Below, in pieces: positions 1-18,497 of a stretch of 49,973 nucleotides of DNA; positions within the stretch are counted from its first letter, which is position 1; the number at the start of each line of letters is the position of its first letter. This DNA is from an uncultured Candidatus Saccharibacteria bacterium (lineage in GTDB: Bacteria; Patescibacteriota; Doudnabacteria; UBA920; O2-02-FULL-48-8), in assembly GCA_964580495.1 (NCBI GenBank), contig CAZOKE010000003.1, forward strand, positions 1 through 49,973. The letters run 5' to 3'. Under the pieces are notes generated by a model. It did no database searches and was not told where the DNA came from. It saw only the letters and a list, made by a program, of their open reading frames with translations. Both the position numbers and the translations under genes were made by a program.

Positions 1-142
1 CCAAAACAACCTTGCCTTTTATAGATCCGGATAAATTTTCCACAGCCGACCAAACCAATTTAGTATATGGCAGCCGATTAGGCAGAACTTTATCCGCCCA
101 AACATCCGCGTCTTCGTCCCAGCGTTTCAAATCATCATTCAT
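1..142 (-). CDS. hypothetical protein, N-terminal fragment running off the left window edge (possibly SAM-dependent methyltransferase)
   Basis: ATG at 142-140 opens MNDDLKRWDEDADVWADKVLPNRLPYTKLVWSAVENLSGSIKGKVVL, which stays open to position 1. The sequence stops just where a VLDxGxG motif would begin. It is too short for the ORF track. Confidence 0.3.
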   Translation of the reverse strand, partial: MNDDLKRWDEDADVWADKVLPNRLPYTKLVWSAVENLSGSIKGKVVL

Positions 143-159
143 CCCGAGGAAATCTCTTT

Positions 160-1167
160 CTACTTAACAGTAATGGTGCCCTTGATAATTGGGCTTAGGG
201 TATCTGTGTAGCTAAAAATTCCAATTTTGCTGAAAGTGAATGTATAGGTATCTCCTTGTTTGAGATCAGTGGAGCCGAAGCCCGAAATGTCGGACCCCGT
301 GGAAGTGTCAATTGCCAAATGATGAGTGGTTGAATCTTTGTTCGTCCAAACCACAGTGTCACCTTTATTGATTGTGACATTAGGCAAAACATTGCCCAAA
401 ATATTCACCTTCAGAGTTTTGGCATTGGGATTGATCTGATTGGCCTGAGTGGCGTTCGCAGGTTTGAGCGTGGTTAAGGTCGGTTCATGCAAACCATAAG
501 CCTGGATATTCGTTTGGATTTGTTGCAGCCTAGTGTCGGTGAATTTCAACCCCGGCGTGAGCGGATCATAGCCATTTCTAATTTCAATGCCGTCGTTGTA
601 GTCGTTCTGTTTGGCTATATCCCTAGTGTCTGTGTATTTTTGCAGAGGCAAAGTGTTGTAGATATGGACTTCATCGCCATCCGCTATGCCGTCGCTGTCA
701 GTATCGGAAACCACTGGACTGGTCCCGGCTACGAACTCTTCATAATTTGTGAGGCCGTCTTTATCCGGATCAGCAGCTTCTCCACAAATATTATCGTTGC
801 TGCAAACCCCGTCTGCATCCAAATTTTGAGAAAAATATTGCTGGAGCCAGGTTTTCGGGAGCCTAGACGCGTTCTGATTTTGCCCAGCAGGGGCTTTCTT
901 AAACGGCCCGAGAAAATAATATCCTAATCCTCCCAAAATCAGCAGGACAATTAAAGCAATGATAATATAGGGCAAAACAGATTTGCGAGCAGAGGATTCG
1001 GATTTAGCTGGGATGCTTGGAGCAGATGATACAACGTGAGTCGGGGTTTCTGGCGGCGGCGGCGGAATGTTTACCGGAGTTTGGTCAACTATCTTTCCGC
1101 CGGATTTAGGCATGACCACAAAGCTGACTTCTTGTTTCTCCGGCGTATTTGGTTTTGTTTCAGACAT
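160..1167 (-). CDS. membrane-anchored surface protein with thrombospondin-type-3-like Ca-binding repeats and a Cys-less cupredoxin-like C-terminal domain
   Basis: 335 aa with a Pro-rich N-terminus and one TM helix (LPYIIIALIVLLILGGLGYYFL). It has acidic DxDxDG-type repeats (DPDKDGLTNYEE, DTDSDGIADGDE). The C-terminal beta-rich segment runs GDTVVWTNKDSTTHHL...GTITVK. Confidence 0.7.
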   Translation of the reverse strand: MSETKPNTPEKQEVSFVVMPKSGGKIVDQTPVNIPPPPPETPTHVVSSAPSIPAKSESSARKSVLPYIIIALIVLLILGGLGYYFLGPFKKAPAGQNQNASRLPKTWLQQYFSQNLDADGVCSNDNICGEAADPDKDGLTNYEEFVAGTSPVVSDTDSDGIADGDEVHIYNTLPLQKYTDTRDIAKQNDYNDGIEIRNGYDPLTPGLKFTDTRLQQIQTNIQAYGLHEPTLTTLKPANATQANQINPNAKTLKVNILGNVLPNVTINKGDTVVWTNKDSTTHHLAIDTSTGSDISGFGSTDLKQGDTYTFTFSKIGIFSYTDTLSPIIKGTITVK

Positions 1168-1183
1168 AGAGGTTTGTTAATTT

Positions 1184-2206
1184 TTAAAATTGGCTTAAAA
1201 GGCGCTGGTCGTTTTGATAAAGCATCCTTATATCCGGGATGTTGTATTTCAGCATAGCGACTCTGGAAATGCCTAGTCCAAAAGCAAATCCGGTGTATTT
1301 ATCTTTCGGGTATCCGGCAGCCTCGAATACTTTCGGGTGAATCATGCCAGCCCCGCCCATTTCCAGCCAGCCGGTGTGGCAGACCGAACAGCCTTTTTTA
1401 TTGCAAAATATGCAGCTCATTATAATTTCCAGGCTTGGTTCGGTAAACGGGAAATAAGACGACCGAAGCTTAATCTCTACATTTTTGCCGAACAGGCTTT
1501 GGAATGTCTGGATTAACACTGCTTTTAGGTTTGCCAGTGAAATATTTTCGCCGACCATAAATCCCTCGGCATAATCCCAAGTGTGCTCATGCCTAGCATC
1601 TGTTGCTTCGTGGCGAAACACGCGGCCGGACGAAATCACCGCAAAAGGCGGAGTAAACTCCTCCATAACCCGCACTTGCATTGGGCTTATGTGAGTGCGC
1701 AAAACTTTTTTGTATTTTGACTTGGCTTCCGTATTTTTTACGTAAAAAGTATCCCACATATCGCGAGCCGGGTGTTCAGCCGGGATGTTTAGCGCTTCAA
1801 AGTTGTAATAATCCGATTCGATCTCCGGGCCAAGCATCGCGGCAAACCCCATTTGCCTGAAAATTTTCTCAATTTCGTTGCGTATCTGTGTTATAGGATG
1901 AATGTGCCCGAGGAGAGTTTGGCCGTCGACAGTCAAATCCAAAAAATCCAATTTGCCTTGGTTTAAAAGCTTGTTGCGGGTTTCGTCAATCTGTTTCCAG
2001 ATTTCGATTTTCACTTCGTTGGCTTCCCTGCCCAAGCTCCGCCGCTCGCCCTCGGATAGATTTTTAATGTTGCGCAAAACATTATTCAAAAGGCCCGAAG
2101 ACCGCCCAAAATATTTCACTACCAAAGCGTCCAGTTCCTCCACACTGGAAACTTTGGCCAAATCTTCGAGCGCGTCTTGTTTCAGATTTTTCAAACTCTC
2201 TGTCAT
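1184..2206 (-). CDS. pheS: phenylalanine--tRNA ligase alpha subunit
   Basis: 340 aa with the class II aaRS core (FRHEATDARHEHTW, FTEPSLEI, GFAFGLGISRVAML). There is a 4-nt overlap with the upstream gene. Confidence 0.95.
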   Translation of the reverse strand: MTESLKNLKQDALEDLAKVSSVEELDALVVKYFGRSSGLLNNVLRNIKNLSEGERRSLGREANEVKIEIWKQIDETRNKLLNQGKLDFLDLTVDGQTLLGHIHPITQIRNEIEKIFRQMGFAAMLGPEIESDYYNFEALNIPAEHPARDMWDTFYVKNTEAKSKYKKVLRTHISPMQVRVMEEFTPPFAVISSGRVFRHEATDARHEHTWDYAEGFMVGENISLANLKAVLIQTFQSLFGKNVEIKLRSSYFPFTEPSLEIIMSCIFCNKKGCSVCHTGWLEMGGAGMIHPKVFEAAGYPKDKYTGFAFGLGISRVAMLKYNIPDIRMLYQNDQRLLSQF

Positions 2207-2574
2207 TTATATAGAAAATAAGCTTCCAAAAAAACCAAGCACAACACCACCAGCGTCCCGTTCAGCCAATTAAACAAGTTAACGGAAAGCAGGACCAAAC
2301 TTACGACTACCAGTAGCATCAGCCAAAGCGACTGCCTGGCAGAGACTTGCAGGTGTTGGACTGCAAATTCTCTAACCCCAAACTTATGGCGTATGGCCAG
2401 GCTTATGGCAAAAGTAAGAGAAAACACCAGCGCAGAAACATCGAGATAAAATAAGACCGGATTTAAAACCCTGGTTTGAGGATCGAGTTTTGTGAGGATA
2501 AGCCAAAATCCCAGTGCCGAAGCAATTAAAACAAATAAACTTAAACTGATGGAAAATGTAATTAGTTTCGGCAA
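2203..2574 (-). CDS. hypothetical polytopic membrane protein
   Basis: 123 aa with about 4 hydrophobic helices. It is translationally coupled to pheS (ATGA overlap). Confidence 0.6.
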   Translation of the reverse strand: MPKLITFSISLSLFVLIASALGFWLILTKLDPQTRVLNPVLFYLDVSALVFSLTFAISLAIRHKFGVREFAVQHLQVSARQSLWLMLLVVVSLVLLSVNLFNWLNGTLVVLCLVFLEAYFLYK

Positions 2575-2627
2575 TTTAGGATTTGGAAGTAGCCTAAATT
2601 ATACCAGAAAATGGAGGAATTTCCAAA

Positions 2628-5627
2628 TTATCGCTCCAAATGCCGGAATTTACAATCATGAGAGTGCCGCAAGTCGGCTTCATAAAAGCTGTTTGTCTCA
2701 ATTGTTCGGACAATCTCCTCTATAGTCTCCAGGAGTTTGCTTTTTAGTTTTTCGATATCCTCAGTACTGCCCTTGAAAGGCAAAGTATTTTGTAGGTCAG
2801 CCAAATACCAATAAGTCAGATTCGAAACTTTTTCCCCGAATCCCTGCTGGGCCGCCCACTGGTAAATTAAAAGCTGGTCGCGGTCAACTTGCTCAAGCTT
2901 GGTCCGCGGCTGCCCGGTTTTATAATCAATTATGTCCAATGACCCGTCAGGGTTTAAATCGGCGCGGTCAATTCGCCCCTTAAACTTATACTTGCCCAAA
3001 ACCAGCCTGAACGGCTGCTCCAAATATTTCGGGAGTTTGGGATCTTCGGAAATTTTTTGGTAAAAGTTTTCCAAATACCGGTAGCCTGACTTGCGATATT
3101 CTTCTTTGTTGGCTTTGCTGTCATACCAGTCATCAATCCACGAATCTTCATAAAATTTATCCAACTGCTCTTTTTTTGGAATTTGGATTTTATCAAGCTT
3201 GGTTCCGAATAAATCCGCTTGCTGCACCGAATTGATCTGGATCATGTTTTGCAGGAATTTCTTGAGCGCATTGTGCACGGTGGACCCAAACGACAAAGCG
3301 GCAGCGCCAGGCAGCGGCAGCTTGTACATGTATTTATATTTATACTCCAGCGGGCATTTTTTGAAAGTTGAAATTTGCGAGAAATCAAAAGCTTCCGGCA
3401 ATAAAAACCGGTGTTCGTTCAGCTTTAAGTTTAATGCGGGCTGCTGCGCGAAGAAAACCTCGCCTGCCGGTTTGATCCGTTCCCGTGCTGTTTCCAAACC
3501 GGCTTCGATCAGGAATTGCGAAGGTTTCTTGAGACTAGCGCCGCCGTATTCGTCAGCCCAAGTAAAGAACAAAAATTGTTTGGCTCTTGTAGCCGCGACA
3601 TAAAACAATCTTCGTTCTTCCATAAGATGCGCGTCCCCTTCCGGCAGAATTTCTTTCACTAATTTTTCGGGAAGTTCGATCTGCTCTCGCCGGTCCCTGG
3701 ATGGGAACCTTTGCTCCACCATGTTTATCACAAACACACAAGAGAATTCCAATCCCTTCGCCGAGTGGATGGTCATTACTTTAATAGCTTCGGGCCCGGA
3801 ATCGGGGCTTGCGACGAGTGTGCCGCTATCTCCCGCCTCTTGTTCGAGTGAAATCTCCTCCAGAAAAGATTTAAGGGACTTATCGCCCTGATCCTGCGAA
3901 AAATCCTGCACCTTGCGGTAAAACTGTTCCAGCAAATTCCTGTTTTCCACGTTTTCCAAACTATCTTCCGCCAGCTGGTCGGCAACACCAAGATCGCGCA
4001 CGATCCGAACGAACAATTCCGAGATGTTTAGCTCGTTTGCCAACTTGCAATGCCGTTCCAAAAGCGACAAAAACTCAGCGACTTTGGCATGCGTTTCCTC
4101 CGCGACATGCGTAAGCGTTGGTAATTGTTTGAGCACTTCATACAGTGACAACGAACGGCGTGAAGCGGTATGCGTTATACCTACTAAATCTTCATGGTTG
4201 AACCGGAATTTCTTCATACCTAAAACGCGAAACAGATAGTCGTTTTGGTGAAAATTGTCCAGAAGTTTAAGGTAAGACAGCAGATCGATGATCAGGGGTT
4301 TGCGGTACAAGCCGCGGCTTGCCACGTAAATGTAAGGCAAATTCCGGCGCGATAATTCGGACAAGAAAGCTTCCGCATGGTCATTGGCTCGCGCGAGGAC
4401 AGCAAAATCATTAAATGAAAGGTTTTCATTCTCCTGCAGTTCCAGAATTTTGTCCGCCACGGCTTTTGCTTCTTCGTAAACATTTTTCGTATGCAGGACC
4501 GCTATTTCGCCCTTTTGGTTATTGTGGCTTTTTAATTTTTTGGAAATTTTCAGCCGAGCTTCCAGGCGGTAGGGATTGTTGCGCTGAATAAAACCGTACG
4601 ACAAGTCCAAAATATTCTGGACTGACCGGTAGTTGTCCACCAAAGTAATTTCAGAGGCTTTTGGATAATCTTCTTTGAATTTGAGGATATTGGAAATCGA
4701 AGCGCCGCGAAATTTGTATATTGATTGGTCATCGTCCCCGACCACGGTTATGTTGTTCTGCGGATGCGACAATAATCTCACCAACTCGTATTGGGCCAAA
4801 TCAGTATCTTGGAATTCGTCAACCAAAATATACTTAAATTTCTCCTGGTAAAACTTCAGGATCTTGGGCCTGGTTTCGAAAAGCTTCAATGTGTAATTGA
4901 TAAGATCGCGAAAATCCAAATATGAATTATCCAATAACAATTTTTGGTACGTATAGAAAGCATTAACCAATTCCATCACTCTCGATGCTTCGGCCGGATC
5001 GACCTCGGTCTCTGATTTAAGCCTGAGTTTGGGTTTTCGTGCTTTGTTTTTGATTTCCGCAGAATCAAAGCTCAGCTGCAGCGACTGGGCATATTCCAAA
5101 TATTGTTCCGGAGTGACTCCTTCCCGCTTGGCGGCTTCAAAGTGCCGGAGCAGGCCGTGTATAAATTTGCCCGGATTGCCTTTAGGTTTGTAATAATCCA
5201 AATTGAAATCATAAATATGCTGGCGCATCATAATCCACGCTTTGGTATCGTCCAAAATCTTGAAATCCCCAGGGATGCCAATGTCGATTGCATGCTGTTT
5301 GAGCAGTTTTTCGGCGAATGCGTCAAATGTCGAAATTGTAATTTCCGAATATCCCAAAGGCATCAGCTGGTCCACGCGCTCCTCCATTTCGCCTGTGGCT
5401 TTCACGGTGAAAGTCAAAGCCAAAATTTCTTCAGGCTTTGCTAAACCCTGATCCAAAAGATAAGCTATGCGCCGGGTTAAAACTGTGGTTTTTCCCGTAC
5501 CGGCGCCGGCAATTATCAAAAGCGGCCCTCCGCCAGCTGGCGGACCAAAAGTCACTGCCTTTTCTTGATTGGAATTTAAGCCATCCAATATTTTAGATTT
5601 CTCATTAATTTTCGCGATTTTTTTCAT
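2628..5627 (-). CDS. UvrD/PcrA-family ATP-dependent DNA helicase fused to a RecB-family PD-(D/E)XK nuclease (AddA-like)
   Basis: 999 aa with Walker A AGAGTGKT, DEFQD and UvrD-type motifs. The C-terminal nuclease motifs are GRIDRAD...DIIDYKTG...QLLIYQ. Confidence 0.9.
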   Translation of the reverse strand: MKKIAKINEKSKILDGLNSNQEKAVTFGPPAGGGPLLIIAGAGTGKTTVLTRRIAYLLDQGLAKPEEILALTFTVKATGEMEERVDQLMPLGYSEITISTFDAFAEKLLKQHAIDIGIPGDFKILDDTKAWIMMRQHIYDFNLDYYKPKGNPGKFIHGLLRHFEAAKREGVTPEQYLEYAQSLQLSFDSAEIKNKARKPKLRLKSETEVDPAEASRVMELVNAFYTYQKLLLDNSYLDFRDLINYTLKLFETRPKILKFYQEKFKYILVDEFQDTDLAQYELVRLLSHPQNNITVVGDDDQSIYKFRGASISNILKFKEDYPKASEITLVDNYRSVQNILDLSYGFIQRNNPYRLEARLKISKKLKSHNNQKGEIAVLHTKNVYEEAKAVADKILELQENENLSFNDFAVLARANDHAEAFLSELSRRNLPYIYVASRGLYRKPLIIDLLSYLKLLDNFHQNDYLFRVLGMKKFRFNHEDLVGITHTASRRSLSLYEVLKQLPTLTHVAEETHAKVAEFLSLLERHCKLANELNISELFVRIVRDLGVADQLAEDSLENVENRNLLEQFYRKVQDFSQDQGDKSLKSFLEEISLEQEAGDSGTLVASPDSGPEAIKVMTIHSAKGLEFSCVFVINMVEQRFPSRDRREQIELPEKLVKEILPEGDAHLMEERRLFYVAATRAKQFLFFTWADEYGGASLKKPSQFLIEAGLETARERIKPAGEVFFAQQPALNLKLNEHRFLLPEAFDFSQISTFKKCPLEYKYKYMYKLPLPGAAALSFGSTVHNALKKFLQNMIQINSVQQADLFGTKLDKIQIPKKEQLDKFYEDSWIDDWYDSKANKEEYRKSGYRYLENFYQKISEDPKLPKYLEQPFRLVLGKYKFKGRIDRADLNPDGSLDIIDYKTGQPRTKLEQVDRDQLLIYQWAAQQGFGEKVSNLTYWYLADLQNTLPFKGSTEDIEKLKSKLLETIEEIVRTIETNSFYEADLRHSHDCKFRHLER

Positions 5628-5633
5628 ATTTGG

Positions 5634-5669
5634 ATTATATCAAAATTTTCGTATTTTCGTACTTTCGTA
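5634..5669 (-). promoter_or_regulatory. extended -10 promoter (TGATATAAT) preceded by three tandem TACGAAAR octamers; predicted leaderless start of the helicase gene
   Basis: The minus strand reads TACGAAAG TACGAAAA TACGAAAA tttTGaTATAAT ccaaat ATG. Only 6 nt separate the -10 from the ATG at 5627. Confidence 0.45.
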
Positions 5670-5673
5670 GGCA

Positions 5674-6709
5674 AAGAAAAAGGCCCCAGAATAGATCTGT
5701 AGGCCGCGGGAAATCGCTGAAGCGGACGGAACAGGAATGAATTTATGAGACAGGGTGCGATTGGTTCTTTGATTGAGCGCTCAAAGATAAGCGATCCTCC
5801 TTGCAACAGGTGGAAAAGGTTTGTGGATCATCTCTAAGCTGAGATGACGTGTGGCGTGAGTTTAGGAAACCCGTAGCCACGAACCATAAACCGCCTGATT
5901 TGGGCAGTGGAGAACGCCGGGGCCCCGGCAATATCTCCATCACCAGCATAGCTCCACGCTCCCTGATTCGTCAAGCAAAAAGAAAAGACCAGTCCTGAGA
6001 GCTGACTGATCTTGGGTGAGTCGATTGACTCGTGCAGGATCCTCCTAGGATCCCGGCGTCTTCTGGTTACAGCCCAGAATTTAAGCTGATGGCTTCTGTA
6101 TCGCTGGTACAAAACGTTTCCTTGCGGAAGCCGTTCTAGACCAGTGGCATAATGCCGACTCAAACTCTGATGCTGTAGACCAGAAGAACAACCTTGATCG
6201 GCTGTCTCACATCCCTCGCGCCGAAGCGCGAAAGTCGTGTTACAATTCGACTTGCGCCGAACCTTGGAACCTTCTCCAAGTACCTTTCCTTCAGAAGACT
6301 TGCGTCCTCCAGCCTGATCCTTCAGGATCTGGCATTGGCCCACGGTTCTGGGTCCCGAATCACACATCGCTTTCGAGCTCCGGCTTGAAGCATTTCTGCC
6401 CCGCACCCCGGTGCTGCCTGGTTATCCGCAACCAGAAATTTGCGATTGCATAGACCTCTGATTTTGCTTTGTCCCGGGTATAACCCTGGGAGGCTTGGTT
6501 CGTCGGATCACGAACCGATCATTGGTCCATTTGTGATTGGAATATTCGACTGATTCGAACTGGTGTTGTACACCTGGCATTTGTTGGAACAAATACTAAG
6601 TCTTACACCGGGTCTACTTCAGATCGAGGTAAGAACCACTTTATACCTAACCTATTTTACCGTCAAGGTGCATAAAGTGGATGAATTGTGGATAAGTATT
6701 TTCATACTT
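5674..6709 (-). ncRNA. candidate large (~0.95-1.0 kb) structured non-coding RNA, unclassified
   Basis: The region is visibly G+C-richer than its flanks and has no credible CDS. It contains more than 20 local hairpins. On the minus strand many are capped by stable tetraloops: GCAA at 6118-6129, 6246-6261 and 6295-6308; UUCG on a 9-bp stem at 6213-6234; UGAA at 6312-6333; GAAA at 6694-6709. It ends in an interrupted stem plus UUUUUCUUU near 5674-5705. Boundaries are approximate. Confidence 0.55.
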
Positions 6710-6744
6710 AAAATAAAAAATTACGTAATTAAATAAGTAATTCC

Positions 6745-6821
6745 TGGTGCGCTTGGCTGGACTCGAACCAGCGGCCTTCTCCTCCGGAGGGAGACGCTCT
6801 AATCCACTGAGCTACAAGCGC
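6745..6821 (-). tRNA. tRNA-Arg (anticodon CCG)
   Basis: Hand-folded 77-nt cloverleaf: GCGCTTG/CAAGCGC acceptor, anticodon loop CTCCGGA, T-loop TTCGAGT, encoded CCA. Confidence 0.9.
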
Positions 6822-6865
6822 TCTCGTCGTAATTGGTCGACACTACGCGTCCGTTCGCAAACTCA

Positions 6866-7384
6866 TTATTTTCGCCGGTGGCCGTTTCGGATTGGCATCA
6901 AATATTTGCGGGGGTCACCATCCAAGTCTAAATAATAATCCACAAGCTCGCGCATCTTTGTGGAAGTGGACTTACCAAATGACACGAGCTCTACTTTGAC
7001 ACCCTGGATTTGAAGATATTCTAAAAGCGGAATATAGTCGCCGTCACCCGATGCCAGCACTACAACATCTAACTTAGGCAAAAGCTTTATGATATCCATA
7101 ACAATTCCCACATCCCAGTCGCCCTTCTTGGCCCCGCCGTAAAAACTTTGGAGTTCTTTGAGCTTGACCTCAAAGCCGGCTTTCTTCAAAGCATCAAAAA
7201 AAGTCTGCTCTTCCGGCATGTCAGCTTTGATGCCATAAGCAATGGCCCGAACCAGCGGCCGATCGCCTACCGCGTCTTTCAAAATATTGGAAAAGTTAAC
7301 CCTGGCATTATAAACGTTTCTTGCCGTGTAATAAAAATTTTGCACATCCACGAAAACCCCTACCCGTTGTTCTGCTCTTGGCAT
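6866..7384 (-). CDS. NYN (LabA-like, PIN-fold) domain protein, putative RNase
   Basis: The ORF-track start at 7510 would overlap rmuC. The internal ATG at 7384 gives MPRAEQRVGVFVDVQNFYY...ASGDGDYIPLLEYLQ, the NYN domain pattern. Confidence 0.8.
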   Translation of the reverse strand: MPRAEQRVGVFVDVQNFYYTARNVYNARVNFSNILKDAVGDRPLVRAIAYGIKADMPEEQTFFDALKKAGFEVKLKELQSFYGGAKKGDWDVGIVMDIIKLLPKLDVVVLASGDGDYIPLLEYLQIQGVKVELVSFGKSTSTKMRELVDYYLDLDGDPRKYLMPIRNGHRRK

Positions 7385-7397
7385 ATTTAAAATTAAA

Positions 7398-8423
7398 TTA
7401 TAATAATTTGTCTGAAATTGTTTCTGGCAATTTTTGCGATTCTTTTTCACCCTCGAGTTGCAAGTTGGCGGCGTTCCCAATCTGGGTCCGCAGTTTGCTG
7501 TATCCATCAACCAATGTTCCCATGCTGTTGTTGGTATTCTTCACATGGTTAGCCATCGTGTCCAACATTTTCCCGAATTTATCCGACTCCTGCTTGATGC
7601 CGTTTATAGCCGCCAAAACTTGCTGGGCAGCTTTGCCGATTTGCTGCCCGCGAAGGGAAACTAAAATTGCTCGCAAATTGATATTCAATGTATTTGGCCC
7701 GACAACGACAACTTTCTTTGACCTGGCATAAGCCTGGGCATCCAAATTCTCAGCCACTTCCATATACACGCCTTCGCTTGGGATGAACATGAATGCATAA
7801 TCTAGAGTGCCTTCAGTGGGCAAGATGTATTTTTTGTGGATCTCATCGATGCGCTTTTTGACATCCTTAAGAAACGCTTTTTTCATGGTTTCCGCAGATT
7901 CGTCTGTTTTCGCTTCTTTATACAACCGATAATTTTCCATGCTGAATTTGCTGTCGATTGGGATTAGCACTTCCCCGACCTGAAGGGCAGCGTCCACTAC
8001 TTCGCCGTTTTTGAACCGATATTGAAACTTGCAAAGTTCTTTTGGAAATACGTCTGTAAGCAGGTTTTCCAAAATTTCTTCCCCAAAATTCCCGCGAAGC
8101 TTCGGGGATGTCAGAGTTTCGGTCAGCCTGCGGATATCCGGGCCGATTTGCGATACTCCACCCAGCTCCTTTGTAAGTTGCGCTATTACGCGCCCGGCAT
8201 TATCTAATCGTTCGTTTACAGCCTTGTTTAAATCCTTCAGCGTATCCTCGGTCCTCTGTTTGCTACTCACTGTTTCCTGTTTAATTTCCTTCATCCATTC
8301 CATCATCACATTCAAGGCTTCCGAATCTTTGGGCTTGGTCAAGAGTTTTTGGATAATCAAAATAACGGCGACGAAGCCGGCGACTATAACCCCCAAAATT
8401 GAATACACAACTTGATTTGGCAT
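7398..8423 (-). CDS. rmuC: DNA recombination protein RmuC
   Basis: 341 aa with an N-terminal TM helix plus coiled coil and an RmuC-family C-terminal region (FMFIPSEGVY, VVVVGPNTL). Confidence 0.85.
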   Translation of the reverse strand: MPNQVVYSILGVIVAGFVAVILIIQKLLTKPKDSEALNVMMEWMKEIKQETVSSKQRTEDTLKDLNKAVNERLDNAGRVIAQLTKELGGVSQIGPDIRRLTETLTSPKLRGNFGEEILENLLTDVFPKELCKFQYRFKNGEVVDAALQVGEVLIPIDSKFSMENYRLYKEAKTDESAETMKKAFLKDVKKRIDEIHKKYILPTEGTLDYAFMFIPSEGVYMEVAENLDAQAYARSKKVVVVGPNTLNINLRAILVSLRGQQIGKAAQQVLAAINGIKQESDKFGKMLDTMANHVKNTNNSMGTLVDGYSKLRTQIGNAANLQLEGEKESQKLPETISDKLL

Positions 8424-8470
8424 GCAGTGATTATACCAAAAAATCGCAATTTTTACTAACTATCCTACTA

Positions 8471-8500
8471 TTGCCAACGCTTGAGGTTTTGTAGTATAGT
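8471..8500 (+). promoter_or_regulatory. putative sigma70-type promoter (TTGCCA-18-TATAGT)
   Basis: The hexamers were read directly. The promoter lies 55 nt upstream of the ATG at 8556. Confidence 0.4.
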
Positions 8501-8555
8501 ATTACATCGATTTGAATATCGATTTTGGTTCCTTTTCATGCTTCTGGAGGATGAA

Positions 8556-9620
8556 ATGGCTAACGACGGCCTGGATGTGATTCAGAGGAGTTTGCGTGCC
8601 CAGCTGCAGATAGTGCTAAACAATCTGCCGGACAATGAAAAACCGGCGAACTCGGATTTTTCGACGAGACGACTCACCTACGTGTTCAAGGAATTCTCGA
8701 TCAAACCAATCGAGAATCCCAACAACGTTTTTGAAGTCGATGTGGACGCTTTTGGCAGTCTGTTAAGCTCGCTTGGATTGATTGATAGCTCAATCCAAAA
8801 TCGTATCATGGATTGCATCGAAAAAGCGACCGAAAACAGTTCAACCAAATTCCAGTTCACACATATCGTCAGCTTCGGCCCCCGGCCGACACCGACGCCG
8901 ATCGAGGAGCCGGTCATCGCCAGACCTGCGGCGGTTGCAGAACCGACAAACTCAATACGAAAAGAAGCAGATCTGCTGCTTGCTGGTTTTGGAGTGATCC
9001 TTATCGTCGCCACTGTGTTTTTGTTCTGGAGGGCCAGGAACCTGCCATTCGCATGGATGCTCATGCTGCTTTTCCTGATCGCGGCGGGGCTTGCCTTTTT
9101 TGCTCGATCAAGAACAACAAAGACTCCTGCTGCTGCAGTGGCGGCAGTTGCATTCGTTCTGCTTCTGCTGCTTCCGGGCCTGCCGCCGCAGTGGTTTGCG
9201 GCCTTCAACCGACCCAGCATCGGATCGGGCAAAGACGTACTGCTGCCACTTAAGTCAAGATCTACTGTTGGAATTTCCCGCTTGCCCGAAGGATTGACAG
9301 GAAGACAGTTCAGCAGCGAGCCGGAAACTTTGGTTTCGCAACCGACTGTGGTTCCCGTCCCCGCCGCACCTGCAGGGCCAGTCATCACCGTAGCCGAAAA
9401 AGAAAGACTGGAAGCAGAAATCAGAAAACTGCAGGAGAAAGTAAAAACACTGTCTAAATCCAAGGCAGTGGTAGTCCAGCAACAGATCGCGCCGCCAGTG
9501 AAGGTCAAGAAAGCGGCTGTCGTTTCCAAGCCCCCAAGGAGGGTCCACAAACTGGAGTACTTCTACATGTGGGTGCCGAGAGAGAATCACCATTCGATCC
9601 CGGTCCAGCCCAACAAGTAG
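8556..9620 (+). CDS. hypothetical membrane protein (G+C-rich gene)
   Basis: Start reassigned to the ATG at 8556, with a GGAGG SD at 8546-8550. The protein has a soluble N-domain, a Pro-rich linker, about 3 TM helices and a C-terminal coiled coil (EKERLEAEIRKLQEKVK). A terminator follows. It is one of the few plus-strand genes. Confidence 0.65.
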   Translation: MANDGLDVIQRSLRAQLQIVLNNLPDNEKPANSDFSTRRLTYVFKEFSIKPIENPNNVFEVDVDAFGSLLSSLGLIDSSIQNRIMDCIEKATENSSTKFQFTHIVSFGPRPTPTPIEEPVIARPAAVAEPTNSIRKEADLLLAGFGVILIVATVFLFWRARNLPFAWMLMLLFLIAAGLAFFARSRTTKTPAAAVAAVAFVLLLLLPGLPPQWFAAFNRPSIGSGKDVLLPLKSRSTVGISRLPEGLTGRQFSSEPETLVSQPTVVPVPAAPAGPVITVAEKERLEAEIRKLQEKVKTLSKSKAVVVQQQIAPPVKVKKAAVVSKPPRRVHKLEYFYMWVPRENHHSIPVQPNK

Positions 9621-9642
9621 AGGTCCCAAATATTTCTACCTG

Positions 9643-9678
9643 CCGCAGACGAGTCCACAAACTCGCCTGCGGTTTTTT
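9643..9678 (+). terminator. rho-independent terminator
   Basis: CCGCAGaCGAGT-ccacaa-ACTCGcCTGCGG followed by TTTTTT. Confidence 0.7.
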
Positions 9679-9679
9679 C

Positions 9680-9708
9680 TTGATTTAATTCCCAACCAGT
9701 GGTATAAT
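9680..9708 (+). promoter_or_regulatory. promoter of the tRNA cluster (TTGATT-17-TGgTATAAT, extended -10)
   Basis: Hexamers at 9680-9685 and 9703-9708 with a TG at -14/-15. Confidence 0.55.
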
Positions 9709-9772
9709 CTCTAAAGCTTACAGGATTTCGATTCCAAGGTGACATACGGAAATCCGAACCTGTTTTAATTTC

Positions 9773-9849
9773 GCCTGGGTAGCTCAGTTGGTTAGAGCGA
9801 AGGACTCATAAGCCTTAGGTCGGCAGTTCGACTCTGCCCCCAGGCACCA
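9773..9849 (+). tRNA. tRNA-Met or tRNA-Ile2 (anticodon CAT, elongator type)
   Basis: 77-nt cloverleaf: GCCTGGG/CCCAGGC acceptor, loop CTCATAA, T-loop TTCGACT, CCA encoded. It has no initiator hallmarks. Confidence 0.88.
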
Positions 9850-9971
9850 AGTTGAATCTATAAAGTGAGGACAGGAATTTTTGAGGACAATGCCGAAGGC
9901 TTTCCAATGCCTGAGGCTTTAGTCCGCATCAGCGGACGTGTCCGAAAAAATTACTGCCCGAACGACGACAT

Positions 9972-10046
9972 CGCGGGGTAGAGAAATGGCATCTCGCAAG
10001 GCTCATAACCTTGAGATTGGCGGTTCGAGTCCGCCCCCCGCAACCA
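9972..10046 (+). tRNA. initiator tRNA-fMet (anticodon CAT)
   Basis: 75-nt cloverleaf with a C1.A72 mismatch and an A11:U24 pair (bacterial initiator hallmarks). Loop CTCATAA, CCA encoded. Only two G:C pairs close the anticodon stem. Confidence 0.82.
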
Positions 10047-10050
10047 AGAA

Positions 10051-10128
10051 GCTCGCTTAGTGTAGCCCGGTTAACACGTCTCCCTGTCACGGAGAAGACC
10101 ACGGGTTCAAATCCCGTAGCGAGCGCCA
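10051..10128 (+). tRNA. tRNA-Asp (anticodon GTC)
   Basis: 78-nt cloverleaf: GCTCGCT/AGCGAGC acceptor, loop CTGTCAC, T-loop TTCAAAT, CCA encoded. Confidence 0.9.
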
Positions 10129-10135
10129 GAACAAA

Positions 10136-10166
10136 GAACTCCAGTACAAGCTGGTGTTTTTTGTTG
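10136..10166 (+). terminator. weak terminator after the tRNA cluster
   Basis: CtCCAG-tacaag-CTGGtG followed by TTTTTT. Confidence 0.45.
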
Positions 10167-10174
10167 CCAAAATT

Positions 10175-10202
10175 AAACGCCTCACATAAGTGCGAGGCGT
10201 TT
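10175..10202. terminator. 9-bp hairpin (AAACGCCTC/GAGGCGTTT), probable terminator for minus-strand transcription
   Basis: Perfect 9-bp stem with a 10-nt loop. It sits just downstream of the tiny ORF at 10211-10252 and of cca. Confidence 0.4.
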
Positions 10203-10402
10203 AAAAGAAACTATCGGCGCTTCTTCTTTGAAGCTTTTTTCTTCTTAGCCATTTTGTGCCAGAAGCTCCTTGTGCCTTACAGTCAAAAAATTTTTTAGAT
10301 TTCTTGCCGCAAGACTTATAATTTTTTCTTTTCTTTCACTCCAATAACGGAGATCAAGGCAAATTGCTTACACATCAAGCGTAAACTATATTGCTAACTA
10401 TG

Positions 10403-11800
10403 TCAAGTGTTTTTTGCAAATTTTTTAAGAAAATTTTTTGCGTCAACCAAATTTTTTATTTCACCATCAATAATTTTTATCTTCATCAGCTCCGAAATTT
10501 CTCCAATCCGCACACCCGGTGAAAGTTTTGTTTCACTAATGATAAATTTTCCATTGCTGAAACGCTCGATCAAGTTTTGGCGTTTCTGAATTTGATTCAA
10601 AAGGGATTTTGCTACAACAACCGATGCCGAGACCCGAGTGCCTGTTTTCCCATTTTCTAAAATTCTGCAATTGCCCAGCGAATCAGCAGCCCAAAGCTCC
10701 ACCAGTTTTGGAAAATCCGGATTTAGGGAATATTTAATCCGGTTCCGTTCCTTTGCGGCGCGGTAATTCAGCCTGTCGTCATGACGCAAAATCAGCCAAT
10801 CAACCAAATCCCGGCCCTGCTTGGAAAAAGGATATTTGGCGGCAAATTCGCGGAATATTCTGGCTGAAGCCGGCTGGTGTCCTGGAAAAGTATTGACCCA
10901 CTCCCCGTCTTTGAAGATTCTCCGGCCAGTGCTGATTTTCCCGATATCATGAAATAACGCGGCATAGAGCAAGTCCAAATCTTTTTTGGAATTTTCCAAA
11001 ACCAAAAGCGTATGGTCGTAGACGCTTCCTTCCAAATGATATTTTTTTGAATTATGAAAAACTTTCTTTAATTCCAAAAATTGCGGCAATACAAATTTCA
11101 GCAGCCCTACCGAATCCAGGAGTCTGATGCCATCTTCGGCGTTTGAAGTAAGTAAAATTTTATCCAGTTCCGACTTAATCCTCTCACCGGAAACTGTTTG
11201 AATGTATTTGGCGCGGGTTTTTATCGCCGCAAAAGTATTTTTTTCTAATTTAAAATCCAAAACTGTTGCCAGCCGCACTCCCCTAATCATCCTCAAAGCG
11301 TCTTCGTCTATCCGATCCTTGGGGTCGCCGACAAATCTCACGATTTTATTATTGACATCCTTTAAGCCGTTGACCGGATCAAATAGCTCGTGCGATACCG
11401 GGTTAAAGTAAATCGTGTTAATCGTAAAGTCGCGGCGCATGGCGTCGTCCAAATATTCCCGGATAAATTCCACTTGGTCAGGGTGGCGCCGATCGCTATA
11501 CTTTGATTCACGGCGGAAAGTGGTAATTTCGAGTTTTTGCCCTTTTACAATTGCCAAAATTGTCCCGAACTTTTTGCCGATTTGTTTGAAATAAATGTTT
11601 GCCTTTTTCAGGATTTTTTCCACTTCGTCAGGCAATGCGTCTGTGGCTATATCCAGATTATCGGAAAGCCTTTTAAGTATTTGATCGCGCACGGCGCCGC
11701 CTACAAAAAATCCCTGGAATTTATCCTTATTTAAAAGCTGGACAATTTTAAGTCCAGCTCTCTCCAAATCGGTTTTCAATTTCCAGTTCAGTTTCTGCAC
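10403..11800 (-). CDS. cca: CCA-adding enzyme / tRNA nucleotidyltransferase with HD domain
   Basis: 465 aa with head motif FFVGGAVRD...DLDIAT and an HD-type motif ALFHDIGK. Confidence 0.85.
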   Translation of the reverse strand: MQKLNWKLKTDLERAGLKIVQLLNKDKFQGFFVGGAVRDQILKRLSDNLDIATDALPDEVEKILKKANIYFKQIGKKFGTILAIVKGQKLEITTFRRESKYSDRRHPDQVEFIREYLDDAMRRDFTINTIYFNPVSHELFDPVNGLKDVNNKIVRFVGDPKDRIDEDALRMIRGVRLATVLDFKLEKNTFAAIKTRAKYIQTVSGERIKSELDKILLTSNAEDGIRLLDSVGLLKFVLPQFLELKKVFHNSKKYHLEGSVYDHTLLVLENSKKDLDLLYAALFHDIGKISTGRRIFKDGEWVNTFPGHQPASARIFREFAAKYPFSKQGRDLVDWLILRHDDRLNYRAAKERNRIKYSLNPDFPKLVELWAADSLGNCRILENGKTGTRVSASVVVAKSLLNQIQKRQNLIERFSNGKFIISETKLSPGVRIGEISELMKIKIIDGEIKNLVDAKNFLKKFAKNT

Positions 11801-11804
11801 AGAT

Positions 11805-12221
11805 TCAGATCACTTTTTTAAATGTAACTAGATCGCCGTCACCCAATAATGCCAGATAAGCTTCCACCAGTTTATCCGGATATTTGGAATGCACTACAGA
11901 AACCGCATGCCGCAGCCACATTTCTTGCTTCCCCAGCTCGTCATCGAGGCCGTTGAAGGACGATGAGCCGCCATAAGCTCCGCAGTCCTGATGGTTTATG
12001 AGAATAACGCGGTTTACGTCATGTTTGCTAAAAGCAATGTCGAAGTTGTCGAACACCCATTCCCGGATCGGCCCTTCTTCCACCACCATCTTCGCCCCGC
12101 CGCCCTGGGCCATGTGATCCACTGCGTATAAATTAAGTTCGTTTTCAAAAAAATCCTGCAGCGGCTTGCGGAAGCGGAAATCAATGCAGGTTAGGGCTAT
12201 AGCTTGTGCTTTGTGGGACAT
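11805..12221 (-). CDS. small beta-carbonic-anhydrase-like protein (CxDxR...HxxC motif pair)
   Basis: 138 aa. TCIDFR and NHQDCGAYGG are arranged like the beta-CA zinc site. The protein is shorter than typical beta-CAs, so the function is uncertain. Confidence 0.55.
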   Translation of the reverse strand: MSHKAQAIALTCIDFRFRKPLQDFFENELNLYAVDHMAQGGGAKMVVEEGPIREWVFDNFDIAFSKHDVNRVILINHQDCGAYGGSSSFNGLDDELGKQEMWLRHAVSVVHSKYPDKLVEAYLALLGDGDLVTFKKVI

Positions 12222-12261
12222 AAATTACTTGCACTGTTAATCGTGTACTCAAAAATTTTAC

Positions 12262-12308
12262 ACAAAAACAAAAAAGCTCGCAAGGACTTCTTGAAAGACT
12301 TGCGAGCT
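12262..12308 (-). terminator. rho-independent terminator
   Basis: The minus strand has AGCTCGCAAG, a 14-nt loop, CTTGCGAGC(T), then TTTTTTGTTTTT. Confidence 0.75.
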
Positions 12309-12315
12309 GGATAAA

Positions 12316-12921
12316 TCAGGCATGAAGCGCGTTAGAGATTTGCACCCGATCCGGATACATAAGCCGCAGACGCGCCATCGGGTGCGAATGGTATTCTTCC
12401 CACCTCTGGCGGCAAACGAACCACGTTTTTTTGCAGGTGCCGTTGTCGATATGGCAGAAGACGGCTACCTTCATTCCCGGCAGCTCGGACTTAATCCGCT
12501 GCTTCGCCGCGAATGCCTCGCTAATAATCTCGGCAAAGCTCATCGATGCGATCTCTGCGATGGCACAAGGCGCATGAACGTAGAGTGCTACCGTTTTGAT
12601 CTTCTTCTTTGCATGCACCAATGCCAAGTCATACATTAGGCCCGTGTCGTACCCGGGAGTGTCGACGTTGGTGCGCGAATTCGGCGCAAGCCGCAGCGCG
12701 CCACCGAGCGGCGCGGGCGGATGGATCCGATCCAGACAACCGGCCTTGACGATGTCTTCCTTGTGATAGCTGTATGCTTCTGGGTGCTGGTCTGGGTCAC
12801 CGCACATGACAATCGAGAGCCCCTCTTTGGGATCGAGGAGATGCGAATTGATCCCGTCCAGGACCCGAGCTTTTTTGTAATTTCCAATAAGCTCGAGATC
12901 GGCAGAAGTCAGCTGCGCCAT
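12316..12921 (-). CDS. hypothetical Cys-rich protein, possible divergent paralogue of the neighbouring CxDx(R/D)...HxxC protein
   Basis: Start moved to the ATG at 12921 (MAQLTSADLE), with an AAGGGGGA SD 4 nt upstream. Motifs are VMCGDPD and VHAPCAIAE. The gene is G+C-richer than its neighbours and has its own terminator. Confidence 0.65.
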   Translation of the reverse strand: MAQLTSADLELIGNYKKARVLDGINSHLLDPKEGLSIVMCGDPDQHPEAYSYHKEDIVKAGCLDRIHPPAPLGGALRLAPNSRTNVDTPGYDTGLMYDLALVHAKKKIKTVALYVHAPCAIAEIASMSFAEIISEAFAAKQRIKSELPGMKVAVFCHIDNGTCKKTWFVCRQRWEEYHSHPMARLRLMYPDRVQISNALHA

Positions 12922-13060
12922 GAAATCCCCCTTTGTGTTCGGAACGAAAAAACAAAACACACCATGTGTTCTGTTTTTGAATCAGGGCCAAATTCGGTTT
13001 GAGATCTAATTCAAAAGCAGAACTTAGAGATGGTAACAAATTATAAAGCCGCAGTCAAGA

Positions 13061-13474: not shown

Positions 13475-13534
13475 AAATTTAGCGATCAGCGTGAAGCGTT
13501 CAGCGTACAGAATCACTACGCTGCCCGCTGTACG

Positions 13535-15770
<2,236 letters not shown>

Positions 15771-18266: not shown

Positions 18267-18497
<231 letters not shown>

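Follow-up and report, generated by a model that had tools for sequence, protein, structure and literature searches.

The gap at 5628-6744 (1117 nt) of the Doudnabacteria window, the whole stretch of 49,973 nucleotides analyzed here, is without a credible gene and probably holds two back-to-back, independently transcribed non-coding RNA genes on the minus strand, which would represent undescribed families. The initial annotation had proposed a single giant RNA of ~1 kb. This span is split in two by a putative terminator at ~5975-6011 and a predicted promoter, P2, at 5974-5945, and the products would be RNA-1 (5975-6630, minus strand, ~656 nt, with ends taken from sequence features) and RNA-2 (5674-5938, minus strand, ~265 nt, predicted from its promoter and terminator). 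At the level of sequence, the analysis establishes how the locus is built and on which strand, that promoter and terminator are conserved and that the helices covary; the sequence motifs suggest that RNA-1 is expressed.

Coding potential and folding of the gap

The gap is bordered by a UvrD/PDDEXK helicase gene (2628-5627, minus strand) and by tRNA-Arg(CCG) (6745-6821, minus strand; found by ARAGORN and scored at 71.6 bits by the Rfam tRNA model), the latter being context outside the RNA family. A region of ~1.1 kb without credible coding sequence and richer in G+C than its flanks had been described here, and both observations hold: G+C content is 0.51-0.53 over 5800-6600 vs 0.43-0.47 in the flanks, and the sole long ORF in the gap (5834-6406, GTG start, 190 codons) gave no match in a Pfam search and no homologue among 5.8 billion proteins. 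Pfam matches were equally absent from the gap ORFs as a whole. Translated searches, which had been advised as a check for a degraded protein gene, gave no convincing similarity to protein families or to the genes that occupy this slot in relatives; tblastx of the gap found no real match (best E = 0.07), and neither did tblastn of the relatives' slot proteins against the window (best E = 0.035). A conserved small ORF was also sought across the RNA-1 members and none was found, the stop-free stretches of the members matching over no more than 30 aa, in frames that differ from pair to pair.

The flanking genes rmuC, NYN, helicase and pheS are of housekeeping type and conserved in synteny. Relatives of the neighboring NYN gene carry PF01936, in agreement with the NYN-type RNase gene noticed initially, and phage records searched with the locus gave no match. 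The slot from tRNA-Arg to the helicase measures 0 to 3.2 kb across genomes and, depending on the genome, contains purH-like genes or a small-protein pair or is empty. The small-protein pair occupies it in L052, L053 and L056, and these proteins have no Pfam family. Two kinds of gene remnant were considered and rejected: a purH pseudogene, for which tblastx, Pfam and protein homologue searches were all empty, and a decayed copy of the small-protein pair, the proteins of which do not match the window.

The fold energy of the whole gap corresponds to z = -9.2 on the minus strand vs -4.4 on the plus strand. When the whole 50 kb window was divided into 300-nt bins (background z -0.65 +/- 1.56), 6001-6300 on the minus strand was the most extreme of the 332 bins, with z -9.2. 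Hairpins with stems of at least 4 bp capped by GNRA or UUCG loops were then counted against dinucleotide shuffles. It can be seen that the minus strand carries 7 of them vs 1.04 +/- 1.01 in the shuffles, none of 1000 reaching 7, while the 2 on the plus strand are at chance level (257 of 1000 shuffles). The earlier argument from loop identity for a minus-strand RNA is thus borne out by both the hairpin counts and the fold energies. All of the hairpins listed in the initial annotation were recovered where it had placed them, with two corrections to their reading. The hairpin at 6312-6333 is real, but its UGAA loop is not a GNRA loop; the GAAA hairpin at 6694-6709 is present, but probably lies outside the RNA because it is upstream of the promoter P1 and overlaps the first of the repeats described below. 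The more general proposal, a minus-strand, highly structured non-coding RNA absent from Rfam, is supported by the fold z-scores and by the Rfam scan.

Promoters, terminators and conserved structure

The predicted promoter of RNA-1, P1 (6638-6666, minus strand), reads TTGACG-17-TAAAGT. The same element had been guessed initially; it was found by the promoter scan and is conserved in seven other genomes, with TTGAC(G/C/T)-17-TAnAnT at the same place in L002, L027, L049/L050, L051, L054, L055 and L057. The number of scan matches is itself at chance level (2 found vs 1.6 expected for the region), so that conservation is what supports P1 and P2. Two DnaA-box-like direct repeats (6677-6695, minus strand) abut the −35 element, TTATCCACA at 6695-6687 and TTCATCCAC at 6685-6677, the former being a perfect box. 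The module TT(A/G)TCCACAnTTC(A/G)TCCACTTAT is shared by the 8 RNA-1 loci and missing from the rest of the 62 loci; L051 has three repeats. The repeats suggest binding of DnaA. Possibly, another regulator recognizes direct TCCAC repeats spaced ~10-11 bp apart. Co-transcription with tRNA-Arg, put forward earlier as the alternative to a separate promoter, is unlikely because RNA-1 has its own conserved promoter.

Transcription would start at an A located 7-8 nt past the −10 element, giving a 5'-ACCUC... end, and would stop in the U-run behind the terminator hairpin H7. Pairing of the ACCUC start with the AGGRGG motif of hairpin H5 was considered and rejected by inspection, since it is not conserved in the L051/L057 subclade. 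The unconstrained minimum free energy (MFE) fold of RNA-1, at -267.2 kcal/mol, contains every conserved helix, and enforcing these helices gives -267.0 kcal/mol. Two domains can be distinguished. The 5' domain (6293-6630, minus strand) is lineage-specific. In the window it folds well, into hairpins capped by GAAA, GCAA and UGAA, yet it is unalignable between genomes, and a consensus sought with MAFFT and RNAalifold in six members was not found (-0.9 kcal/mol). Most of the tetraloop hairpins noticed at first fall in this non-conserved half. The conserved 3' domain (5975-6292, minus strand, ~320 nt), defined by MAFFT and hand alignments, an nhmmer profile and the covariance models R1 and R2, comprises in order the purine block GAAGGAAAGG, H1, variable GNRA/UUCG hairpins, the H4 arm, H5, H6 and H7.

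H1 (6263-6280, minus strand) has the form CUUGGA-GAAGG-UUCCAAG with a conserved (G/U)AAGG loop. Its stems vary yet pair, as CUUGGA/UCCAAG, UCGGGG/CUCCGA, CAAAGG/CCUUUG and CACGGCA/UGCCGUG, and 4 of the 6 pairs are altered on both sides in an unfitted alignment in which 2 of the 6 sequences are out of register. H4 (6059-6187, minus strand) is a long-range helix between 6187-6179 and 6067-6059. It closes an irregular arm of 111 nt that in the window is tipped by a GCAA tetraloop hairpin (6118-6129). An unbiased scan found H4, at 7-12 bp, in all 8 members, and in the unfitted MAFFT alignment it is 96.7% paired with 2 compensatory positions. Folded on its own, the enclosed arm gives a single long hairpin in 6 members, 4 of which have GCAA at the tip. 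By inspection, a local alternative to H4, CCUGGA/UCCAGG, is not kept in L049 and L054.

Hairpin H5 (6037-6053, minus strand; GGAUCCU-AGG-AGGAUCC) displays an invariant Shine-Dalgarno-like AGG(A/G)GG. It is present in 8/8 members with differing stems and was predicted independently by MFE in 6 of the 7 folded members, the exception being L054. H6 (6018-6031, minus strand) is GAGUC-AAUC-GACUC in the window, and its stems across relatives are GGAAC/GUUCC, GAGUC/GACUC, GGACC/GGUCC and GGAUCC/GGGUCC. H7 (5975-6011, minus strand), the putative intrinsic terminator of RNA-1, consists of the stem GAUCAGUC/GACUGGUC with a 9-nt loop, followed by UUUUCUUUUU. Stem and U-run are at the same position in every member, and all five modeled pairs are altered on both sides. 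A simple terminator scan flagged the terminator of neither RNA because the loop exceeds 8 nt (H7) or the stem is interrupted (RNA-2); conservation in the alignment argues for both.

RNA-2 would begin at P2 (5945-5974, minus strand; TTGACG-18-TATGCT), also a scan match. In L051 and L057 the arrangement TTGAC(A/G)-17/18-(C/T)ATGCT is followed by the same hairpin. This 5' hairpin (5938-5909, minus strand), GGAGAUAUUGCCGGGGCCCCGGCGUUCUCC, covaries, being GCCGGGG/CCCCGGC in the window, CUUCGGG/CCCGAAG in L051 and GUUGGGGG/CCCCGAC in L057, where a 2-nt length difference breaks the overlapping 68-codon frame. RNA-2 carries an internal GCAAGGAGGAUCG and ends in an interrupted stem plus UUUUUCUUU (5705-5674, minus strand), a stem that had been taken for the end of the whole locus and is here read as the RNA-2 terminator; this 3' part and its terminator are shared with L027 and L051. 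The fold of RNA-2 has z = -5.5 on the minus strand vs -2.4 on the plus strand. A likeness in RNA-2 to the 11-nt GAAA receptor motif (UAUGG...CCUAAA) was put down to chance, since on inspection L027 does not share it. Beyond RNA-2, the helicase appears to have a leaderless-type start (5625-5639, minus strand): TATAAT at 5639-5634 stands six bases before the ATG at 5627-5625, with no Shine-Dalgarno sequence, and almost every Doudnabacteria locus, whether it carries RNA-1 or not, has a TATAAT 6-16 nt ahead of this ATG.

The RNA-1 family and its covariation

Homologues and covariation had been named among the checks, and an 8-locus family with compensatory changes was found. It consists of the window and seven other Doudnabacteria loci, representing 7 distinct sequences, all from one part of Doudnabacteria. 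The members are 489-679 nt long with a G+C content of 0.50-0.55, and the helicases of their genomes are 57-77% identical (76% for the closest relative). The homology was not obvious from the whole gap: nhmmer and blastn searches with it against 38 and then 55 syntenic loci returned only a 70-nt promoter module, and RNA-1 homology emerged only on aligning the stretches from promoter to ATG. The promoter module is present in exactly 8 of 62 loci, and an nhmmer profile of the 3' domain recovers all members. Across 53 sources, the covariance model R1 found 7 real sequences at 18-26 bits and no other convincing match. L002 was left out of the training of R2 and was detected by it at 35.5 bits (E = 2e-5); run with filters off on other ORF-free gaps, R2 gave weak matches only, of which L016 (13.4 bits) may be a reduced RNA-1 relative and the remainder are unconvincing. 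A metagenome scan with the box-plus-promoter pattern found nothing, a helicase-anchored scan one useful locus, and scans of viral contigs nothing or chance matches.

RNA-1 is absent at this locus in most syntenic relatives. In view of this and of the variable slot, it would be either dispensable or located elsewhere in those genomes. Nor is the tRNA always its neighbor: L027, L054 and L057 have purH-like genes or another ORF separating the two.

MAFFT placed the 3' piece off register by 1-4 columns; for this reason the piece was aligned with hand-set anchors, and the covariance model was seeded from a core descriptor of equal length. For H5-H7, the alignment was fitted to the structure, with the hand-trimmed core descriptor as seed, and is biased in favor of that structure. 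In it, 98.8% of cells pair vs 73.2% in shuffles, 13 of 15 pairs are altered on both sides, and the covariation score is 0.597 vs 0.245 shuffled (0 of 500), with slid controls at 0.05-0.12. For H4 and H1 in the unfitted alignment, the overall score is 0.367 vs 0.243 (reached by 2 of 500 shuffles). Independently of these alignments, all annotated hairpins are reproduced by MFE folding in 6 of 7 sequences.

Proposed function, rival explanations and known RNA classes

RNA-1 may be transcribed from the sigma-70-type P1, directly behind two to three DnaA-box-like direct repeats, to its own intrinsic terminator, and its expression might be tied to DnaA occupancy of the boxes. The transcript would fold into a fast-evolving 5' domain and the conserved ~320-nt 3' domain, presumably its functional part; RNA-2 would follow with its own promoter and terminator, and then the helicase from its own TATAAT. 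We infer a trans-acting role for RNA-1, either as a folded RNA or as the core of a ribonucleoprotein, and not that of a helicase leader. Its GNRA-tipped arm could make tertiary or intermolecular contacts, and hairpin H5 with AGGRGG might be a site for a protein or for the ribosomal anti-Shine-Dalgarno sequence. SD-like motifs are not enriched in RNA-1, and a complementary antisense or guide target sought within the 50 kb window was not found beyond chance. A replication origin was rejected: there are only two or three boxes, relatives show no AT-rich unwinding element and have a GC-rich terminator before the boxes, the cumulative GC skew does not change direction here, and all genes are co-oriented. 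A much bolder reading, which we regard as doubtful, is that RNA-1 founds a CPR-specific class of large ornate RNAs, the 3' core of which would perform catalysis, self-assembly or control of the ribosome or replication, with synthesis wired to DnaA, as a tRNA-adjacent accessory module swapped with the small-protein pair.

It is conceivable that everything from P1 to the helicase forms one long structured 5' leader, with P1 as the DnaA-controlled helicase promoter and the two terminators as attenuators whose read-through determines how much helicase is made. It lies on the same strand directly upstream of a DNA-repair-type helicase, DnaA-box-like repeats would fit a gene of DNA metabolism, attenuation usually takes the form of terminators inside leaders, and a 60-codon frame in RNA-2 ends in an ATGA that overlaps the helicase start. 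However, the helicase has its own TATAAT without SD, conserved in relatives that lack RNA-1; a strong stem and U-run end RNA-1 in 8/8 members; a second promoter-terminator unit stands between RNA-1 and the helicase in three or four of them; no conserved alternative (antiterminator) pairing was found; and most relatives have the same helicase without such a leader. A leader is therefore unlikely. RNA-1 or RNA-2 could instead be an mRNA for one or more small proteins, for example the 68- or 60-codon frame behind the strong SD-like AAGGAGGA of RNA-2. The AGGRGG in H5 of RNA-1 would be a further such signal, L052 and L056 have SD and ATG of a 61-62-aa ORF at a comparable position, and the −10 element of P2 stands just before an ATG. 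This is highly improbable, since the SD-like motifs of the window have no canonical start codon after them, the stop-free stretches of the members agree over 30 aa at most in inconsistent frames, the 5' hairpin of RNA-2 shows compensatory changes and a frame-breaking 2-nt indel, and the window shows no match to the relatives' small proteins.

That the locus is non-functional, what is left of a decayed gene or mobile element in a hypervariable islet next to the tRNA, with incidental hairpins, would agree with the variable slot (0-3.2 kb, contents differing by genome), the unconserved 5' half and the narrow distribution. We consider it very unlikely. Translated similarity is absent (tblastx, tblastn, Pfam, 5.8 billion proteins), whereas compensatory changes hold five helices paired across genomes with 57-77%-identical helicases, promoter and terminator are conserved, and the fold z is strand-specific and the most extreme in the window. 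CPR genomes are compact, and 1.1 kb of junk would be unusual in them. Titration of a CsrA-like protein by GGA loops, in the manner of CsrB/RsmZ sponges, was suggested by two conserved motifs, (G/U)AAGG in the loop of H1 and AGGRGG in H5, and by several AAGGA motifs at loop-stem junctions in the window. This idea, no more probable than a small-protein mRNA, was rejected on motif counts: in 7 of 8 members, A[AG]GG[AG] is no more frequent than in dinucleotide shuffles (the window has 4 vs 4.8 expected, and L057 has 0), and one or two conserved sites are far below what Csr/Rsm sponges have. The least probable reading is a divergent known RNA missed by the models, be it GOLLD, ROOL, OLE, HEARO, raiA, RNase P RNA, tmRNA, SRP RNA, 6S RNA or a group I/II intron. 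RNAs of CPR bacteria frequently diverge, and the length of 490-680 nt, the GNRA-rich multi-helix build and, in the window, the nearby tRNA gene recall GOLLD and ROOL. However, Rfam 15 is unmatched at E <= 10 in three family members, ARAGORN reports no tmRNA, the flanks are of conserved housekeeping type without phage context, the members do not all adjoin a tRNA, and most relatives lack the RNA at the locus, unlike an essential RNA. Two independent non-coding RNA genes are the preferred reading.

The comparison with Rfam 15 covered all 4227 models, GOLLD and ROOL among them, and was the scan that the initial annotation had advised; the gap was empty at the gathering threshold and at E <= 10. 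The searches at E <= 10, run on short stretches with permissive filters, found no match in the window locus, L055 or L049. The family models of RNase P RNA, tmRNA, SRP RNA and 6S RNA were unmatched, as were the covariance models of OLE, HEARO, raiA and the other large Rfam RNAs, and ARAGORN found only tRNAs. Group I and II introns showed no Rfam core match and no Pfam domain in the gap ORFs; an RNA between genes, with its own promoter and terminator, also argues against an intron. RNase P, tmRNA, SRP and group II, which had not been recognized initially, are indeed absent by Rfam and ARAGORN. That the RNA-1 and RNA-2 families are undescribed is concluded mainly from their absence from Rfam 15, and a limited literature search found no large structured RNA in the candidate phyla radiation.

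Bacterial RNAs of several hundred nucleotides with conserved structure are rare, and earlier large orphan RNAs proved to be ribozymes, ribonucleoprotein cores or, lately, self-assembling cages. In tiny genomes, a kilobase free of protein genes is costly. With a defined promoter, terminator and covarying core, the RNA-1 family is directly testable, and if DnaA does bind the boxes, the replication cycle and a non-coding RNA would be coupled in organisms for which hardly any regulators are known. The practical impact is uncertain, given a family of few members with a patchy distribution.

Among known systems, GOLLD (RF01998) and ROOL (RF03087) resemble RNA-1 in being independent genes of hundreds of nucleotides with many helices and frequent GNRA tetraloops, beside a tRNA in the window. 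Their typical setting is a prophage or phage, often next to tRNA genes. In contrast, RNA-1 has no prophage context, being flanked by rmuC, NYN, helicase and pheS without any phage match; it matches neither model at E <= 10, only ~320 nt of it are conserved, and it is confined to part of one CPR lineage. The analogy with these RNAs drawn initially from tRNA proximity fails because tRNA adjacency is not a trait of the family (L027, L054, L057). OLE RNA (RF01071) is likewise a lineage-restricted, stand-alone structured RNA of ~600 nt, and RNA-1 probably shares with it a way of working with proteins; its model is unmatched, however, no OapA-type gene is among the flanking genes, and OLE is conserved over its whole length whereas the 5' half of RNA-1 is variable. 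Trans-acting sRNAs share with RNA-1 a sigma-70 promoter of their own, a 3' end formed by a rho-independent terminator and a 5' part that changes more rapidly than the 3' module. RNA-1 differs in being five to ten times longer than typical sRNAs, in the tight folding of its variable part, where sRNAs have an open seed, and in having no complementary target in the 50 kb window. DnaA-controlled promoters, such as those of dnaA autoregulation, sda and nrd, similarly have two to three close TTATCCACA-like boxes in the same orientation abutting the −35 element, although here DnaA binding is predicted and the product would be a large non-coding RNA instead of a protein gene. RNA-1 agrees with a generic bacterial non-coding RNA gene in having its own conserved promoter and terminator (P1 in 8 loci, a covarying H7), with P2 and a second terminator for RNA-2, and a structure supported by compensatory changes, seen here in 7-8 sequences with one of the alignments structure-fitted.

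The interval between tRNA-Arg(CCG) and the helicase gene

The window comes from a genome of Candidatus Doudnabacteria (Patescibacteria/CPR). Its NYN protein is 83-93% identical to counterparts in named Doudnabacteria MAGs, its helicase is 76% identical to the closest relative, and no near-identical genome is on record. rmuC (7398-8423), the NYN gene (6866-7381), tRNA-Arg(CCG) (6745-6821, located by ARAGORN) and a UvrD/PDDEXK helicase gene of 999 aa (2628-5627) all lie on the minus strand, with a 1117-nt gap (5628-6744) between the last two. Across the whole window, the minus strand carries almost all long ORFs and four of the seven tRNA genes; this bias, together with a cumulative GC skew that falls steadily across the profiled part (1-14000), fits a single replication arm.

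The initial annotation had proposed a giant structured RNA of about 1 kb in this gap. The hairpins, loops and other features it listed were all found in the sequence, and the gap is G+C-enriched as described (0.51-0.53, against 0.43-0.47 in the flanks). It holds no credible gene: neither the 190-codon GTG frame nor six shorter frames matched Pfam, and the GTG frame had no homologue among 5.8 billion proteins. Folding of the whole gap was strong and strand-specific, with z = -9.2 on the minus strand versus -4.4 on the plus strand. When the window was scanned in 300-nt bins (background mean -0.65, sd 1.56), the minus strand of 6001-6300 was the most extreme of 332 bins (z = -9.2). At a minimum stem length of 4 bp, the minus strand of the gap contains 7 hairpins capped by GNRA or UUCG loops, versus 1.04 +/- 1.01 in shuffles (0/1000), and the plus strand contains 2, which is the chance level.

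Other fold signals were seen in the window. The one at 18210-18591, which reaches z of about -6.4 and -7.7 on the two strands, is ordinary, being a small ATP synthase c-subunit gene between two long terminator-type hairpins. Rfam gave no gathering match for the minus strand of 25501-25800 (strand-specific z = -6.2, inside a 590-codon ORF at 24774-26546), the 230-nt gap at 24544-24773 (z = -6.1, plus) or 27139-27838 (700 nt in which no ORF reaches 110 aa; z = -4.8, plus). About 1.25 kb at 38423-39669 also lacks any ORF of 110 aa or more (longest stop-free stretch, 136 codons); its fold z-scores are ordinary and it probably holds small genes.

Promoter module and layout of two candidate RNA genes

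Searches with the whole gap against 38 syntenic loci gave no match beyond a 70-nt stretch common to the window and the Doudnabacteria loci L027 and L002. This stretch is a promoter module, made up of a terminator-like hairpin, two or three direct DnaA-box-like repeats, TT(A/G)TCCACAnTTC(A/G)TCCACTTAT, of which the first in the window is a perfect TTATCCACA, and TTGAC(G/C/T) followed after 17 nt by TAnAnT. Extra loci were gathered through close helicase relatives. The module was found in exactly 8 loci (the window, L002, L027, L049/L050, L051, L054, L055 and L057) and nowhere else among 62. Elsewhere in the window, the only other perfect DnaA box lies at 45543-45551, with a one-mismatch box at 45416-45424; the AT-rich 374-nt intergenic gap there (45416-45797) has a G+C of 0.34. 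Nine-mers resembling TTATCCACA number 22 in the window, about double the shuffle count of 10.5 +/- 3.3.

Alignment of the promoter-to-ATG stretches exposed the layout. Downstream of the promoter comes an RNA starting at about 5'-ACCUC, with a variable 5' part and a conserved 3' domain that closes with a stem and U-run. In the short members TATAAT follows, 8-10 nt upstream of the helicase ATG. In the window, L051, L057 and partly L027, a second unit lies between this terminator and the helicase, with a 5' hairpin, a terminator of its own and a promoter, TTGAC(A/G)-17/18-(C/T)ATGCT (minus strand, 5974-5945 in the window), that a promoter scan found independently. On this layout the span would comprise two minus-strand genes, RNA-1 (about 6630 to 5975; 656 nt, family range 489-679 nt) and RNA-2 (about 5938 to 5674), their ends being predicted from sequence. 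RNA-2 also folds strand-specifically (z = -5.5 versus -2.4). Its 5' hairpin covaries among relatives and L057 has a frame-breaking 2-nt length difference, so an overlapping 68-codon frame is disfavoured.

Nearly all Doudnabacteria loci have a helicase TATAAT 6-16 nt before the ATG and no Shine-Dalgarno sequence (window 5625-5639; L005, L008, L009, L011, L013, L014, L039, L052 and L056), which suggests a leaderless or near-leaderless helicase mRNA.

Covariation in the conserved 3' domain of RNA-1

The 3' domain (about 6292-5975, minus strand) opens with a purine block, GAAGGAAAGG (about 6292-6283), and helix H1 (6280-6263; loop (G/U)AAGG). One or two variable hairpins follow, which in the window are the GCAA and UUCG hairpins of the initial annotation. 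The long-range helix H4 (6187-6179 with 6067-6059) then closes an irregular arm with a GCAA tip at 6118-6129. H5 (6053-6037) displays an invariant AGG(A/G)GG, and H6 (6031-6018) and H7 with its U-run (6011-5975), an intrinsic terminator, complete the domain. The 5' half of RNA-1 (6630-6293) gave neither an alignment between genomes nor a consensus structure.

An unbiased scan recovered H4 (7-12 bp) in all 8 members; it encloses about 200 nt in L051 and L057 and 86-111 nt in the others. On a plain MAFFT alignment, pairing in H4 reached 96.7% and two positions showed compensatory changes; H1 and H4 together gave a covariation score of 0.367 versus 0.243 in shuffles (2/500). Folded independently, the arm inside H4 formed one long hairpin in six members, four of them with the GCAA tip.

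On a hand-anchored alignment H5, H6 and H7 were fully canonical, and many of their positions showed 3-5 different pair types. Because these stems had been picked by eye, three checks were made. In independent MFE folds, every annotated pair reappeared for 6 of the 7 sequences. A covariance model built on a hand-trimmed, equal-length core descriptor picked up seven members on their real sequences, with no other convincing hit among 53 sources. On the alignment made by this model, which is fitted to the structure and seeded by that descriptor, 98.8% of H5-H7 cells were paired versus 73.2% in shuffles, both sides had changed in 13 of 15 pairs, and the covariation score was 0.597 versus 0.245 (0/500), slid partners giving 0.05-0.12. 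A second model (R2), trained without L002, scored L002 at 35.5 bits. The unconstrained MFE structure of the window's 656-nt RNA (-267.2 kcal/mol) includes all five helices, and enforcing them gave -267.0 kcal/mol. The family is known from seven distinct sequences only.

Distribution and nature of the locus

The tRNA-Arg-to-helicase slot varies from 0 to 3.2 kb in Doudnabacteria. Some genomes carry purH-like genes there, some a small-protein pair and some RNA-1, alone or together with RNA-2; in others the slot is empty. Roughly one in four of the examined syntenic loci has RNA-1; given this patchy presence in a variable slot, it looks like an accessory, fast-evolving element and not a universal housekeeping RNA. 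A reduced relative may lie in L016 (2611-3075, about 440 nt). Its promoter, TTGACA-17-TAGAAT, lacks boxes, the pairing of CUUCUGGGG with CUCCCCAGGAG encloses only some 33 nt, and its terminator loop GGCACAUGCUGG resembles that of the family; R2 scored it at only 13.4 bits.

The purH-like genes of the slot (L001, L004, L012, L027, L037, L038, L053, L057 and L063) are split, the MGS/IMP-cyclohydrolase part (about 200-230 aa) being separate from the AICARFT part (about 330 aa), or consist of the first part alone; their presence marks the slot as a variable region in the lineage. In the conserved small-protein pair (L052:3984-4677, L053:2736-3219, L056:466-938, L037:about 4669-5000, L005:about 2766-2891), a first protein of some 80-130 aa, marked by the motif V(V/I)(I/V)(E/Q)E(F/L)..(Y/H)W(F/V)AQ, precedes one of about 61 aa; Pfam has no family for either. 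In L053 (2476-2680), the tRNA-Arg(CCG) that ARAGORN places at 2538-2614 is flanked, by eye, by apparent halves of a second tRNA-Arg gene (5' GCGCTTGTAGCTC..., 3' ...GGTTCGAGTCCACCCAAGCGCACCA), so that one tRNA gene appears interrupted by an insertion carrying another.

Several identities were weighed. Translated comparison with relatives ruled out a decayed purH in the gap (tblastx against all syntenic loci, best E = 0.07), and a decayed copy of the small-protein pair was rejected too, neither protein having a match in the window. A conserved small-protein mRNA and a multi-site GGA sponge were also rejected, and no antisense complementarity of RNA-1 was detectable within the window. A replication origin was rejected: boxes are few, no AT-rich element is conserved, and the skew does not turn at the locus. 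That the span is a leader of the helicase gene seems improbable: the helicase has a separate promoter, which is kept in genomes without RNA-1.

As judged by comparison among the relatives, the promoter with its DnaA-box-like repeats and the terminator are conserved, five helices covary and the predicted helicase promoter is separate. RNA-1 probably acts in trans, as a free-standing folded RNA or as the core of a ribonucleoprotein, and the conserved 3' domain would be its working part. Tertiary contacts, or contacts with other molecules, would be made by the GNRA-tipped arm and the other tetraloops, the AGGRGG hairpin, which is invariant, would be recognised by a protein or by the anti-Shine-Dalgarno sequence, and transcription would respond to DnaA.

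The initial finding is real and of interest, and is smaller and more local than proposed. Neither the gathering thresholds nor a cut-off of E <= 10 brought out an Rfam 15 match in the gap, and with ARAGORN this rules out a known RNA class for RNA-1; no description of such an RNA was found in the literature, covered incompletely. It is neither a giant RNA of 1 kb nor a member of GOLLD or ROOL; the locus is best described, on sequence grounds, as a new lineage-restricted family of structured RNAs of about 0.5-0.7 kb, accompanied by a second small RNA gene.
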